From positions 1-64,000 of the IMG/VR virus record IMGVR_UViG_3300005719_000009: a DNA stretch of 64,000 nt; one strand, written 5' to 3'. Source of the stretch: a virus. Lineage: Duplodnaviria > Caudoviricetes. The position numbers and the translations under genes were made by a program. Shown here in pieces: positions 3,041 to 57,629 of the stretch. The notes below the pieces were generated by a model. It was not told where the DNA came from. It did no database searches and saw nothing but the letters and a program-made list of their open reading frames with translations. Numbering within the stretch: position 1 is the first letter of the stretch; the number at the start of each line of letters is the position of its first letter.

Positions 3041-3604
3041 TCATTTATTTGATTGTTGGTATAGTTGATAAAGTTGTTCTGTGGTGATACTATCTCCGGT
3101 TTCTGTATGAGTCCATTGATCTTCATCTGTTGCAGAATACATGCAATCTCCTTGTAATGTCCATTTCATGAAAGCCACCGCATCACTTTCCTTTGATGGT
3201 GATTCGTCGAGGTAGTAAACCGTAACATCTTTCTTTTGTGCTTCCTCTTTCCCTAATGTAGTTTTATTCAAAAATGTAATTAAAACAACCTCCCCTCCTA
3301 CCACTGACCCTACACCACGCATTACAATATTACCTAAATTCGATTCTACTTTCATGTTATAAATGCCATCTCTCATGCCAGTGAATGCCTTAACCCACAC
3401 TGCTCCTTCTGGCTTAAATTGCAATGATTCAAGCCACTGCCTGAACTTATACACAGCAGACGACGCGCTGCACTCCTTGCCGATATTTTCTTCGAACCAA
3501 TTTTGAACTGCATCATCGGCTGGTAGTGCGTAACTGCCTATGGGGTATTTGTTTTGCATTATCATGGTTTGATAAGTTCCAGTGAATATCCAAGATTTCC
3601 GCAT
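3041..3604 (-). CDS. Hypothetical modular protein with C-terminal TTEQLY module
   Basis: ORF; shared C-terminal module; true start possibly at the internal MIMQNK. Confidence 0.6.
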   Translation of the reverse strand: MRKSWIFTGTYQTMIMQNKYPIGSYALPADDAVQNWFEENIGKECSASSAVYKFRQWLESLQFKPEGAVWVKAFTGMRDGIYNMKVESNLGNIVMRGVGSVVGGEVVLITFLNKTTLGKEEAQKKDVTVYYLDESPSKESDAVAFMKWTLQGDCMYSATDEDQWTHTETGDSITTEQLYQLYQQSNK

Positions 3605-9624: not shown

Positions 9625-10020
9625 TTATTTTTTAGAATGGCTCTCGTTGGTTTTGTTCAATATATCCTGACTTTCTATTTCAACCAATTCCTCCCTGCGC
9701 TTCATATAAGCCTTTTCAAGAGTCTCGCTGCCCTTAATCAGCCCCTTGTAAATATCAATAGATTTCAGATCATTACACGAAAGAAGCACCTCTGTTGTAA
9801 TGCCTATATTCCTTTTTTCTTGATTAACCTGAATCACCGGGAGATCGTTTGATGTTGAGTTGCGATGTGTTGATGAGTGATACGAATGTATTATTTCTTC
9901 CAGCTTATGAAGTGCTTTTATTGGGTCATCGTCTTCTTCAACAGTAGCCTCAAAGCCAACCCATTTTTTGTCAAATTGAGTTTCCACTTGAATAGTAAGT
10001 TTTGCGCGATCAATTTTCAT
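9625..10020 (-). CDS. Hypothetical protein
   Basis: Co-directional ORF. Confidence 0.6.
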   Translation of the reverse strand: MKIDRAKLTIQVETQFDKKWVGFEATVEEDDDPIKALHKLEEIIHSYHSSTHRNSTSNDLPVIQVNQEKRNIGITTEVLLSCNDLKSIDIYKGLIKGSETLEKAYMKRREELVEIESQDILNKTNESHSKK

Positions 10021-10113
10021 CGGTTGATTTTTTATGTGTAAAAAAAAGGGCTAACAAAAATGAAAGCCCCGACATTATAAACACCTTAGACTATTGAGAA
10101 AATGTTAAGTTTT

Positions 10114-10142
10114 AAAAAATGCCCCGGTCAAGCTACCGGGGC
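10114..10142 (-). terminator. Intrinsic terminator closing the tRNA-like cluster
   Basis: GCCCCGGT-N6-ACCGGGGC stem plus T-run on the minus strand. Confidence 0.7.
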
Positions 10143-10181
10143 AGCACTAATCAAATACCATTAACCATTAAACCTTATCCG

Positions 10182-10253
10182 AGCCTCATGGGTCACTCGA
10201 ATACCCTTGTCATGATTACAAGTCGTGCGGATCACCATCAATCCTTATGAGGC
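10182..10253 (-). tRNA. tRNA-Thr(TGT)-like gene with non-canonical positions, no encoded CCA
   Basis: GCCTCAT/ATGAGGC acceptor; GGAT/ATCC D stem; CACGA-CTTGTAA-TCATG anticodon arm; GGGTA-TTCGAGT-GACCC T arm; A8 and A53.G61 deviate from consensus. Confidence 0.65.
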
Positions 10254-10478
10254 TGTTATTATTCCATGTCCATGTATCCAGCATGAAGTAAGGCTATCAG
10301 CACTCGAATGGGAGTTTTCTGTTGGCTTACGACGCCTTTACATCCTTACCCATCCATCAAGCAGCGCTACTGGTATAGCTTCGGCAAATGATTTTACTCA
10401 CTGGGCCTTTCGTGGTGCGAAGGTCTTGCCGATGTTTAAATTCAGGCAGGGAATAACTATTTAAAAGAACTTAAAAAC

Positions 10479-10549
10479 GCAGGTGTTCTGCCAATTTAAA
10501 CTACCACCCCCGTGCAGGGGGACGCGGGATTCGAACCACGGCTTCCTGC
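10479..10549 (-). ncRNA. Circularly permuted tRNA-like element (T arm, loop-closed acceptor, D arm; open anticodon stem)
   Basis: GCAGG AAGC CGTGG-TTCGAAT-CCCGCG TCCCCC-TGCAC-GGGGG TGG TA GTTT-AAATTGGCA-GAAC A CCTGC. Confidence 0.6.
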
Positions 10550-10566
10550 TGCTATTTAAAATAGCT

Positions 10567-10785
10567 TCATTGAACTTCATTTGTCTTAACAAGTATTTCA
10601 TCAGCCAACTCCGAACACTCATATTGATTTAACTTACCACTTGCAAAAAGAATATTCTCAATAACCTCTCTTCTTTTCCCTGAATGAACCGGGCACATGT
10701 CATAGCCCGCAACAACTGGCTCACCAACATTATTTAACTCGCATATACATCCAGTCAATCTATTGGCATTTAATTTGTCAGACAT
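10567..10785 (-). CDS. Hypothetical protein (CxC...CPVH)
   Basis: ORF between tRNA-like elements. Confidence 0.55.
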   Translation of the reverse strand: MSDKLNANRLTGCICELNNVGEPVVAGYDMCPVHSGKRREVIENILFASGKLNQYECSELADEILVKTNEVQ

Positions 10786-10868
10786 AAAGCATTAATTAAA
10801 AGTAAAAAATAAGAGTCCGCTATAAAGATAGCCATCTCCTTTTAATTCCCTCTAAACCTTATGAAGAG

Positions 10869-10940
10869 TGGAGCGGAATGGGTTCGAACCATTAACCTTT
10901 CGATATGTGCCGACTTCTCTACCAATTGAGCTACCGCTCC
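10869..10940 (-). tRNA. tRNA-Met/Ile(CAT)-derived gene with a shortened, aberrant anticodon loop
   Basis: Perfect GGAGCGG/CCGCTCC acceptor and AATGG-TTCGAAC-CCATT T arm; anticodon arm GTCGG-CACATA-TCGAA (6-nt loop, no U33). Confidence 0.7.
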
Positions 10941-11023
10941 AAGTAGTAGCTTACCTACCAGCAAGTTTTATATAATGTACGAATAAACTAAGTAAGCAAC
11001 AGGACGGAGATTCAATGACTTTT

Positions 11024-11052
11024 AAAAACGCCCCAATGTAGAAACATTGGGA
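11024..11052 (-). terminator. Intrinsic terminator after the GIY-YIG gene
   Basis: CCCAATGT-N4-ACATTGGG stem plus T5 on the minus strand. Confidence 0.6.
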
Positions 11053-11100
11053 CTATCTAACGATTGCTTGCCATATGAAAATTAGATTAACTTTAATATA

Positions 11101-11631
11101 TCAAATAGCGCTCTTAATATCATCCTCAGCCTCCACGTACTCGTTAAGAAATTGATGAATCCTTTCACTAACGGTAACCCATTCAGAAATCGCCCGCCTC
11201 ATGGCAGCTTCATATATAGAAGGGTATGTAGAATATGTACACGTGACCTTATGGTTAGGCTTAACAACGTCCATGCTTCTGCGTATATTAGGAACTTTAT
11301 TTTCGTAATTAAGATAATTTGGTGATTGAAAAAGACGAATGCCTATCGATACGTACTTTTCATAATAAAACCGCTCCCTGCTGCCTCCTTCATCAAGAGG
11401 AACAATTTCAAGTAAAACAATCCCAACATTAAACCCACTTTCTATAATCTCTTTTATATAGTTAGCCCTATCATGCCGATAACCTACCCTACACATGCCT
11501 TTAGATGAATTTAAATGCTCGCGCAACCTATGCAGCAATGGCTTACTCGTAACACCTACATAAAACAAAACACCTGTCCTTGTGTCAATAAGCCCATAAA
11601 CTCTTGCTCTATTTACTTTTTTCTTTGGCAT
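11101..11631 (-). CDS. GIY-YIG nuclease with a C-terminal RHH-like DNA-binding segment
   Basis: VYGLID...FYVGVTS..L..RL.EH; C-terminal TYSTYPSIYEAAMRRAISEWVTVSERIHQFL. Confidence 0.7.
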   Translation of the reverse strand: MPKKKVNRARVYGLIDTRTGVLFYVGVTSKPLLHRLREHLNSSKGMCRVGYRHDRANYIKEIIESGFNVGIVLLEIVPLDEGGSRERFYYEKYVSIGIRLFQSPNYLNYENKVPNIRRSMDVVKPNHKVTCTYSTYPSIYEAAMRRAISEWVTVSERIHQFLNEYVEAEDDIKSAI

Positions 11632-21372: not shown

Positions 21373-21575
21373 GCCCTACAAAAATACTAACCAAAAAAAC
21401 ATCAGTATGCCCCACTGAGCTACGCGGTAGCAAAACGAGGGTTCACGAAATCAGTCGTTATGAAAAACTAAATGATGGTCAGATTTGCGTCGCACACTTA
21501 CTATATCGGTAAAGTCTGACTAATAGTTGTTCACAGTTATTGATTTGTTGTAACCCGGCCAACCACCGGGTTACA

Positions 21576-21617
21576 TGGGAGGCAATGGAAGCGTAGGTTC
21601 GACTCCTACCCCTCCCG
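21576..21617 (+). ncRNA. Minimal tRNA top-half mimic (acceptor stem + T arm, no D or anticodon stems)
   Basis: TGGGAGG-CAATGGAAGC-GTAGG-TTCGACT-CCTAC-C-CCTCCCG; preceded by a 9-bp hairpin at 21550-21574. Confidence 0.55.
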
Positions 21618-55785: not shown

Positions 55786-56080
55786 ATACGATACCGATTA
55801 TTTCTTCGCCTTGTAAGACTAAATATGTTTGACCTTCGTACTCTATTTCAAAACCGCACCCTTTATGAAATAGCGCTTTCTTGCCTTTCCCATTCTTTAT
55901 ATTATGGTCTTTCACCAAAGACCCGATACTGAATATCGTTCCCTTGTTAGGCTTAACCTTCCCTTCAGATGGGAGCAATAAACCAGATGTTTCTGATTCT
56001 GTCTTGTCCCTAAGTACAAAAACGCAATTATTTGTTGCTTTTGGTTGATTGTTCATATTATACAGATTACATTGTGTCAC
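55769..56080 (-). CDS. groES: Co-chaperonin GroES
   Basis: V.V.R...E.ETSGLLLP...G.I.SIG...YEG..YLVL..EEIIGIV. Confidence 0.8.
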   Translation of the reverse strand: MTQCNLYNMNNQPKATNNCVFVLRDKTESETSGLLLPSEGKVKPNKGTIFSIGSLVKDHNIKNGKGKKALFHKGCGFEIEYEGQTYLVLQGEEIIGIVYETSK

Positions 56081-57629
56081 AAATAAGGCATTCGGAGGTA
56101 AGGATCATCCCAGCAGATGAGGCTGCATTCTGTAAAGCGCACCTAAGCACCTTGGTTGGGTCGATTACACCAGCCTCAACCAAATCCTCAATAACATCTG
56201 TCTTTGCATTATATCCGAAACTTCCGGCCAACCCTTTAACTTGTTTTAATATTTGCTCTGCATCTGTTCCGGCATTAAGGCAAATTTGCTTAAGAACCAT
56301 TTCCATTGCAGAATCAACAACTTCATTCCCAGATTTAACCCTTAACAATGTTGTTCCGCCGCCTGCCACATACCCTTCAGAAATGGCTGCTTTGGTGGCC
56401 CTTACTGAATCATCAAACCGATCTAATCTTTCTTTCATTTCGGTTTCCGTAGCAGCGCCAACCTGAATAACAGCAACGCCCCCAGTTAATTTTGCTATTC
56501 GCTTTTCAATTGGAAATTTTTCGTCTTCGTTTTTAGCTTGTGCTAAATTCATACGCAATTCATCCAGCAAATTTTGAAGCAAATCCTTATCTGTATCGCC
56601 GCCAATTATAACAGTTTCTTCTTTGTTAACGATAACCTTTTTCGCGAAACCTAAATTAGCTGGCTCTATTTCTTTTATATTGACACCACGCAAATCGCTA
56701 ACATAGGAGCCCCCTGTTAATAATGCAATATCTTCCATTTCCAAGCGTCTCGCCTCGCCAAAAGCAGGAGCCTTAACAACACAAACCCGTACCCGACCCT
56801 GAATAGTATTCATGGCCAAAAAAGCAAGACCCTCATCAACAGCATCTTCGCATATTATCAACAACGGATGCCCTTGTTTCATTGATATTTCAAGCGCTCT
56901 TTGAATTTGAGTATGATGATTTATCCTGTTTTGGTAAATCAAAATCAATGCTTCCTCAAACTCGCATATTTGCTTTTCCTTGTTGTTTACAAATAAAGGA
57001 GAAACCCAACTCTGCTCCCACTTATACCCATCAGAGATTTTTATTTCAGTGTCAACACTTTTACTTGGCTCCAAATCAATTATACCCTCATCCCCGATCT
57101 TTTCAAACGCCTTCGCAATCCACTCCCCGATTTCCGGGTCATTATTGGCTGAAATGGTGGCTATTTGTCGAATACGATTTATATCCCCCTTTATTGGCGT
57201 GGAAACATCTTTTAGCCTATCAACAACAAGCCCAACAGCTTTGTCAATTTCTTTTTTCAATTCCATTGGATTAGCTCCTTGATTTATCAAGGCGATACCC
57301 TTTTCAGCAATCGCCTCGGCTAAAACAACGGTAGTCGTCGTCCCATCACCGGCCTGATCAACTGATTTCTGGGATGCTTCCTTTATCATTAAAACTCCCG
57401 CTTGCTCAAATGGATCATCATGCACTTCAAATGCCTTGGCAGTAGTATACCCATCTTTGGTAACGTGTATTGGTAAGTTATGTACCCCATAATCAACAAC
57501 CATGCTTTGTGATATTAATACATTTCTGCCCATTGGTCCTAATGTAACCTTCACAGCAGCCGCGATCTTCTTAATGCCAGATAGCAATTTTGCACGAGCA
57601 TCAGGCCCGTACAACGTCTTTTTGTTCAT
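56067..57629 (-). CDS. groEL: Chaperonin GroEL (no GGM tail)
   Basis: TLGP.GRNV; TKDG; AGDGTTT; KAPAFG; KLTGGVAVI.VGA.TE; GVIDPTKV.R.ALQNAAS. Confidence 0.97.
   Translation of the reverse strand: MNKKTLYGPDARAKLLSGIKKIAAAVKVTLGPMGRNVLISQSMVVDYGVHNLPIHVTKDGYTTAKAFEVHDDPFEQAGVLMIKEASQKSVDQAGDGTTTTVVLAEAIAEKGIALINQGANPMELKKEIDKAVGLVVDRLKDVSTPIKGDINRIRQIATISANNDPEIGEWIAKAFEKIGDEGIIDLEPSKSVDTEIKISDGYKWEQSWVSPLFVNNKEKQICEFEEALILIYQNRINHHTQIQRALEISMKQGHPLLIICEDAVDEGLAFLAMNTIQGRVRVCVVKAPAFGEARRLEMEDIALLTGGSYVSDLRGVNIKEIEPANLGFAKKVIVNKEETVIIGGDTDKDLLQNLLDELRMNLAQAKNEDEKFPIEKRIAKLTGGVAVIQVGAATETEMKERLDRFDDSVRATKAAISEGYVAGGGTTLLRVKSGNEVVDSAMEMVLKQICLNAGTDAEQILKQVKGLAGSFGYNAKTDVIEDLVEAGVIDPTKVLRCALQNAASSAGMILTSECLICDTM

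Follow-up and report, generated by a model that had tools for sequence, protein, structure and literature searches.

A stretch of 71 nt on the minus strand of a phage genome carries the 3' half of a tRNA in front of the 5' half. Is this element an RNA in its own right, a tRNA gene in permuted form, or the remains of two tRNA genes that once lay side by side? The window analyzed here (64,000 nt) comprises the first 64 kb of a 76,124-nt phage genome from IMG/VR which is rated complete. No close relative of this genome was found among cultured phages, and database searches with its exonuclease matched only Flavobacteriia-type phages at less than 30% identity. The sole clear relative in IMG/VR is IMGVR_UViG_3300026078_000022 (referred to as G001), the exonuclease of which is 65% identical. 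The window also contains a gene for a full-length GroEL-type chaperonin (56067-57629, minus strand), which shares about 40-43% identity with the chaperonins of large phages of Vibrio, Bacteroides, and Flavobacterium.

The element is located in a gap of 550 nt extending from an ORF of 72 aa (10567-10785) to an ORF of 131 aa (9625-10020), and everything in this region lies on the minus strand. Two terminators bracket a minus-strand RNA operon: the intrinsic terminator predicted at 11030-11053 belongs to the preceding unit and marks the upstream limit, and the one at 10120-10143, which consists of a 9-bp GC-rich stem and a T run, closes the unit. The order within the unit is a tRNA with a 6-nt anticodon loop, the 72-aa ORF, the element, approximately 230 nt of non-coding DNA, a weak tRNA-Thr gene, and the terminator. 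No tRNA-binding Pfam or PHROG family was found in the neighboring ORFs.

The first tRNA of the unit (10868-10940, minus strand) was reported by ARAGORN as tRNA-???(ca) and reached 46.8 bits with the Rfam tRNA model. Its acceptor, D, and T arms are perfect; the anticodon loop comprises only 6 nt (CACAUA), and therefore a normal anticodon cannot be read. The short loop may reflect recent inactivation of a Met/Ile(CAU) gene, or the variant may be deliberate. The tRNA-Thr(UGU)-like gene downstream of the element (10181-10253, minus strand) was called by ARAGORN at the 95% threshold only, shows several defects, and remained without a match to the Rfam tRNA model at E ≤ 10; the strong terminator at 10120-10143 follows directly.

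Three further interpretations of the locus were discarded. ARAGORN proposed at the 85% threshold a tRNA with a 265-nt intron, which we consider spurious because the position of the intron is non-canonical. A group I intron within a split tRNA found no Rfam intron match across 9800-11200. An attP site or tRNA 3'-half integration site was dropped because the 5' half accompanies the 3' half and the location is deep within the genome.

Anatomy and predicted fold of the element

The core module (10479-10549) was recognized by its sequence, by ARAGORN after re-permutation, and by the covariance model R1 introduced below. Read on the minus strand from 10549 to 10479, the order is closing stem, variable region, T arm, acceptor-like hairpin, U8-A9, D arm, and closing stem, so that the permuted layout from GCAGG to CCTGC given in a preliminary description of the locus is indeed what the sequence contains. 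The closing helix takes the place of an anticodon stem; its 5' strand GCAGG (10545-10549) forms five of five Watson-Crick pairs with its 3' strand CCTGC (10479-10483). The variable region AAGC adjoins GCAGG on the 3' side. It is followed by the T arm (10523-10540), composed of CGTGG, the canonical loop sequence TTCGAAT (10535-10529) plus C, and CCGCG. The acceptor-like hairpin (10504-10522) consists of the C-rich 3' strand (10522-10516), a loop of 4-5 nt (TGCAC or GCACG), and the G-rich 5' strand (10510-10504). U8-A9, the D arm, and position 26 occupy 10484-10503; the D arm, GTTT/AAATTGGCA/GAAC, spans 10501-10485 with four of four stem pairs and is followed by A and then by CCTGC.

Two of the four stems are imperfect, as had been noted before. 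Only two of five pairs form in the T stem when the loop is 7 nt long, all five form with a loop of 8 nt, and four together with a bulged U appear in the R1 alignment. The acceptor-like stem has five or six of seven pairs, i.e. one or two mismatches, depending on the register. The D stem and the closing helix are intact. All nucleotides that build the elbow of a tRNA are canonical in the element (U8, A14, G18, G19, A21, T54, T55, C56, and A58), and neither CCA nor G3:U70 is present in any register. A second CCTGC at 10515-10519 is also complementary to GCAGG at 10545-10549, and this pairing is favored in the predicted structure of minimum free energy (MFE).

In its native order the element was called neither by ARAGORN nor by Rfam. 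When the 5' half, any 7-nt loop, and the 3' half were joined, ARAGORN called a tRNA at the default threshold. The likeness is more than chance and points to a derivation of the element from tRNA. The mutual fit of the two halves goes only modestly beyond that of ordinary tRNA-tRNA junctions; 2 of 55 real junctions match the complementarity of the element, with at least six of seven acceptor pairs and a closing run of at least five.

Thermodynamic prediction for the 71-mer did not yield a cloverleaf as MFE structure, and the stability was unremarkable (z-score -0.68). The tRNA-like fold was calculated at -17.5 kcal/mol as compared to -24.3 kcal/mol for a fold with two hairpins, a gap of about 7 kcal/mol; the latter uses GCAGG paired to the second CCTGC within the acceptor strand. 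Twenty-two modules, namely the element and 21 from other phages, were compared in this respect. The element alone has a broken T stem, each of the other 21 showing at least four of five T-stem pairs, and it alone still misses the four-way fold when the T and D stems are forced.

Elsewhere in the window, at 21567-21612 on the plus strand, a "top-half" tRNA-like hairpin was observed in the order GGGAGG, a 10-nt linker ending in AAGC, a perfect T arm (loop TTCGACT), and CCTCCC. R1 matched its T arm alone, with 10.5 bits. Its plan is shared by the alternative first hairpin of the permuted element.

The element is flanked by direct repeats, CTATTTAAAA on the plus strand at 10457-10466 and 10552-10561, which are 95 nt apart and, when extended, identical at 14 of 16 positions. 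On the minus strand, the upstream copy of this AT-rich motif of 16-17 nt (AAGCTATTTTAAATAGC, 10551-10567) overlaps the stop codon of the 72-aa ORF, and the downstream copy (AAGTTCTTTTAAATAGT) is located at 10456-10472. The downstream 16-mer (AAGTTCTTTTAAATAG) occurs exactly at two places in a non-coding, RNA-like region of G001 (L006:1501-1516 and 1836-1851), where a third, looser copy was seen by eye at about 1983-2000. In both phages, the motif occurs within the non-coding RNA locus only, at the borders of RNA-like units; in G001, a T arm forms the end of one such unit. Furthermore, a block of 24 nt adjoining the motif (10433-10456 in the window) is 83% identical in G001, where it is found on the opposite side of the motif. 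The repeats reported earlier thus exist, but they do not belong to the element in particular: as judged by the exact copies bounding RNA-like units in G001, they are a lineage motif of the RNA locus and not a target-site duplication. The motif may be a punctuation, promoter, processing, or recombination signal. Because it is near-palindromic, its two copies can pair at 12 of 14 positions around the element (null P about 0.01-0.02). This AU-rich outer helix is also present in the predicted MFE structure of a 119-mer and could represent an outer stem like that of Y RNAs or a mere by-product of the motif.

Stem-closed modules in phages and their relation to YrlA

IMG/VR was searched for a T loop followed by a D arm at the distance found at tRNA-tRNA junctions, and at least 121 matches were obtained. 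Sorting of the 121 listed matches with ARAGORN assigned 68 to true tRNA-tRNA junctions; one half lay within a tRNA in 31 cases and neither half in 22. The members of this last class are closed by stems, with an almost always perfect T stem and a closed acceptor hairpin of 6-9 bp, and 21 of its 24 distinct junction sequences among the listed matches are clearly structured modules. Across 18 aligned modules, the acceptor hairpin is 93.7% paired and six of the seven pairs vary on both sides. The covariation score of this hairpin was reached in none of 500 shuffles and was far lower in slid registers as well. The tRNA-like four-way fold of the phage modules is mostly predicted within 0-2 kcal/mol of the MFE (range 0-4.6).

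Some of these modules share their contig with a gene for a Ro60-type protein. A TROVE (Ro60) gene is found at a distance of 0.15-2.7 kb from five of the 22 listed, and the Ro60-like DUF2828 on three further module contigs; altogether, 8 of 19 module host contigs encode Ro60 (TROVE) or DUF2828. Well-formed modules also occur in complete or near-complete phages devoid of both, namely Phass-1, G020, and G003. Both a circular permutation of the tRNA order and a closed acceptor stem have been described for YrlA (PMC4201824; 10.1101/312249). Its structure was reported by Wang et al. (2018, 10.1101/312249), it has been assayed in vitro with TruB, DusA, and RNase P (M1 RNA) (Chen et al. 2014, PMC4201824), and YrlA RNAs are known to occur also in phages and beside tRNA genes (PMC4201824; 10.1101/312249). 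From the shared layout and the proximity of TROVE or DUF2828 genes it follows that the stem-closed phage modules are the tRNA-like module of YrlA-type Y RNAs. The layout of the element is hence not new in kind, since the YrlA-type architecture has already been described.

The covariance model R1 was built from 18 foreign modules, with the present genome left out. It aligned with the element from end to end over 10469-10554 at 38.3 bits (E = 1.8e-8 in the window), and 18 of the 21 model pairs were formed. The order T arm, acceptor, D arm had been likened to the tRNA domain of YrlA in the preliminary description; this assignment is backed by the 22 listed phage modules and by the R1 match. Real dimeric tRNA junctions reach up to 39 bits with R1; therefore, the score cannot separate a mimic from a relic. 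The caveat that dimeric tRNAs mimic YrlA in model searches was raised previously (Chen et al. 2014, PMC4201824).

The search with the Rfam YrlA model (RF02553) that had been proposed left the element unmatched at E ≤ 10, whether 191 nt, 1.4 kb, or the whole genome were searched. The gathering score of this model, 69 bits, was not attained by the Phass-1 module (25.6 bits) or by the phage copies next to Ro genes (about 30 bits) either. The absence of a Ro-binding stem was borne out insofar as the motif GNCGAA (GNCGAAN0-1G) was not found within 70 nt upstream of the element; most phage modules, including Ro-adjacent ones, are likewise without GNCGAA, which makes it a poor discriminator. No partner for the element is encoded by the phage: TROVE, DUF2828, and RtcB genes are absent from the complete genome of 76,124 nt, which extends the earlier statement about a missing Ro gene beyond the window and answers the proposal to look for Ro60 and RtcB in the rest of the genome. 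A TROVE gene was present in the genome of Bacteroides thetaiotaomicron that served as control. The element has the module order closed by an anticodon-stem-like helix, with an imperfect T stem and acceptor, and it has the elbow nucleotides; a match to the Rfam model, a GNCGAA Ro-binding helix, and a Ro60 gene within about 4 kb were not found. By the criteria of the family itself, the element is not YrlA as far as can be read from its sequence; at the level of architecture, it does belong to this class.

Searches for an orthologue gave negative results throughout. The relative phage (G001/G002) with the 65% identical exonuclease yielded no counterpart of the element. It has no tRNA, and a lone T-arm fragment is the only tRNA trace in G001. 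Similarity between the downstream non-coding stretch of about 230 nt and a non-coding unit of G001 did not exceed that of shuffled sequences. No orthologue was obtained by megablast and blastn of 1.2 kb against phages or with exact junction patterns in IMG/VR, no orthologous locus with the neighboring proteins in IMG/VR, and nothing by alignment of the 131-aa neighbor in JGI metagenomes or with the Phass-type pattern in GTDB genomes. Two homologues of the 131-aa neighbor, P0002 (75% identity) and P0003 (62%), came from Logan assemblies only.

Competing readings of the element

We favor, at a little less than even chances, the reading that the element is a weakened orphan tRNA-elbow mimic of the YrlA class. 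It would be a tRNA-derived, stem-closed "inside-out tRNA" with the architecture of that class, in which the T arm and the D arm are predicted to be able to build a tRNA elbow. As the acceptor-like stem is sealed by a loop, there would be no CCA end and the molecule could not be charged; a short helix would replace the anticodon stem, and an anticodon loop would be missing. The element would presumably be co-transcribed with the other RNAs of the operon and perhaps be released at the flanking AT-rich motif, unless the motif copies pair as an outer helix. As an uncharged elbow mimic it might then occupy a tRNA-binding factor of the host, for which Ro60/Rsr, RNase P, and enzymes modifying the T and D loops are candidates. 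The copy described here is a weakened example and may be marginally functional only. Its origin is probably the junction of two neighboring tRNA genes.

The same origin underlies the reading that we place only just behind the first and regard as quite possible, namely that the element is a dead relic without function. It would consist of the Pro-like 3' half of one tRNA gene, a spacer of 5 nt, and the Ala-like 5' half of the adjacent gene, the outer halves having been lost or overwritten. Two tRNA genes separated by 5 nt would show the spacing observed here. Each half of the element was compared with 1,040 phage tRNAs. The 5' half proved to be closest to tRNA-Ala(UGC), which supplied the top two matches and 10 of the best 40, and the 3' half to tRNA-Pro(UGG), with 13 of the best 40. 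The anticodon stem CCTGC/GCAGG and G/C-rich acceptor ends are common to phage tRNA-Pro and tRNA-Ala; therefore, a Pro-Ala junction would pair likewise automatically. The equal complementarity of 2 of the 55 real junctions and the R1 scores of real junctions are in line with a relic, and so is a Ser-Ala junction (L113) that resembles the element more than the Phass-1 module does. Furthermore, the tRNA-like genes of the locus are all defective (the 6-nt anticodon loop, the sub-threshold tRNA-Thr, and the top-half fragment at 21567-21612), G001 is without any tRNA and keeps a T-arm fragment only, the element has flawed stems, and prediction assigns it a more stable alternative fold. Dimeric tRNAs, finally, are known to be mistaken for YrlA by model searches (PMC4201824).

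Several observations are difficult to reconcile with a relic. The missing outer halves have left no trace that ARAGORN or Rfam would detect, and the likeness to tRNA stops exactly at the ends of the 5-bp stem on both sides, which two random deletions would rarely achieve. Together with the lack of a complete tRNA in the flanks, these exact ends of the closing helix support a discrete mimic. Loop and tertiary nucleotides are unaltered, a conserved motif is present on both sides as for a discrete unit, and most of the distinct junction sequences in which neither half belongs to a tRNA (21 of 24 among the listed matches) are structured modules.

A broader version of the mimic reading, which we regard as doubtful, would unite the element with the well-formed modules of complete phages lacking Ro60, such as that of Phass-1, in a Ro60-independent class of phage tRNA-elbow mimics. 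Once freed from their tRNA operons, these RNAs would engage a protein or enzyme of the host that binds tRNA, for instance Rsr, RNase P, or a defense nuclease directed against tRNAs, and either hijack it or act as a decoy for it; in this setting, the element might toggle between its tRNA-like and its two-hairpin fold.

It appears rather improbable that there is no tRNA-like fold at all and that the element forms merely two hairpins between AT-rich motifs, a T-arm minihelix closed by GCAGG and the inner CCTGC, and a D-arm hairpin. Both hairpins would then punctuate the RNA operon for processing or stability, in the manner of the element at 21567-21612. Such a fold is the MFE structure of the 71-mer, a 77-mer, and the 119-mer, lies 7-14 kcal/mol below the specified tRNA-like structure, and survives forcing of the T and D stems. 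Its first hairpin has the plan of 21567-21612 (stem, linker ending in AAGC, T arm, and C-rich strand), and the flanking motif recurs around RNA-like units in G001. However, the energy model omits the tertiary contacts of the elbow, the z-score is unremarkable, comparative support is lacking, and the second CCTGC may be due to chance.

Two readings are of very low probability. In the first, the element would be the tRNA-like domain of a two-piece tmRNA in circularly permuted form, the coding piece of which would reside in the downstream 230 nt. The order would fit (P2 3' strand, T arm, acceptor 3' strand, intervening loop, acceptor 5' strand, P2 5' strand, and about 230 nt up to the next tRNA), the 5' half is Ala-like, and in one of the downstream frames a stop codon is preceded by SSAA, but ARAGORN found no tmRNA in five arrangements (including the native one, the un-permuted one, and one with CCA added) at three thresholds down to 80%, the Rfam tmRNA families matched nothing beyond an 11-nt T-loop hit, G3:U70 and CCA are missing, the full D stem of the element would be unusual in a tmRNA, and the candidate tag is unlike tmRNA tags, so that this reading is largely refuted. 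Equally improbable is a true permuted tRNA gene of the kind known from Cyanidioschyzon merolae, the transcript of which would be circularized and then cut open within the acceptor loop to yield a functional tRNA: the halves do stand in the appropriate order and the re-permuted sequence passes ARAGORN, but the flanks consist of the AT-rich motif without anticodon-loop halves and without a bulge-helix-bulge motif, the genome has no RtcB gene, CCA is absent, and the stems are imperfect. Bacteria are not known to possess the splicing endonuclease, which also counts against a permuted tRNA gene. The idea of maturation by circularization put forward earlier found no support, anticodon-loop halves being absent from the flanks and no ligase or endonuclease gene being present.

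If the element is active as a mimic, phages without a Ro60 gene would still carry sealed tRNA mimics, which would point to a use of the tRNA elbow during infection of Bacteroidota that is independent of Ro or dependent on the Ro of the host. If it is dead, it would provide a snapshot of how a mimic originates from, or decays to, the junction of two tRNA genes.

Comparison with known systems

In the permuted tRNA genes of Cyanidioschyzon merolae and in two-piece tmRNA genes, the 3' half precedes the 5' half. Both mature into a chargeable molecule with a CCA end. The element differs from them in that it has neither an anticodon loop that could be restored nor CCA, G3:U70, or a tag frame.

Junctions of dimeric tRNAs have the T arm, the acceptor 3' strand, a spacer, the acceptor 5' strand, and the D arm at the same spacing as the element, and their R1 scores are equal (up to 39 bits). 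In contrast to these junctions, neither half of the element extends into a complete tRNA, as ARAGORN (down to 80%) and Rfam (E ≤ 10) called none in the flanks, and its two ends form a helix of five of five pairs.

With YrlA (RF02553), the element shares the whole series of closing helix, variable region, T arm, acceptor closed by a loop, UA, D arm, and closing helix. Both lack CCA and an anticodon loop, and both have kept the elbow nucleotides. Unlike YrlA, the element has no Ro60 gene, no GNCGAA helix, no Rfam match, and a defective T stem; furthermore, an alternative fold is preferred in prediction.

When 50,697 phage records were compared with the 71-mer, the best alignment came from Phass-1 (OQ749652.1, about 106,395-106,498), where an unannotated module within a tRNA cluster matched it without gaps over 54 nt that span the junction, at 76% identity. 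Both agree in order, in spacing, and in the D stem GTTT/GAAC, and the Phass-1 module is likewise located upstream of a tRNA-Thr(UGU) gene, at a distance of 20 nt, in a phage without Ro60 and DUF2828. Unlike the element, the Phass-1 module has a perfect acceptor hairpin of 8 bp and a closing helix of 8 bp, its tRNA-like fold lies within 1.3 kcal/mol of the MFE, and the Rfam YrlA model recognizes it with 25.6 bits, whereas the element gave no match. Homology between the two is not established because the Ser-Ala tRNA junction (L113) matches the element at least as well; indeed, this junction is closer to the element than the Phass-1 module is. The Phass-1 module recurs in another 13 contigs of gut phages, where its acceptor shows a compensatory change.

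Three observations were made on other phages during this comparison. In Phass-1, a GC-rich non-coding stretch of about 490 nt extends from a tRNA-Val gene to the stem-closed module (OQ749652.1, about 106,355-106,970; L013:1010-1570). It gave no Rfam match at E ≤ 1, a gap of 470-490 nt is also present in at least one close relative (L128), and the stretch could be an undescribed structured RNA with the module as its 3' end. On one IMG/VR phage contig, a GOLLD RNA (250 bits; L057:3961-4386, minus strand) is located about 430 nt upstream of a stem-closed module (3486-3528, minus strand). A tandem pair of tRNA-like modules occurs at L064:1944-2068 (plus strand); the first has no acceptor hairpin, and its T arm almost abuts the D arm.

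As the architecture is already known from YrlA, the single copy described here adds little to it. More is gained from the well-formed orphan modules that the comparison brought to light in complete phages without Ro; the Phass-1 group is their clearest example.
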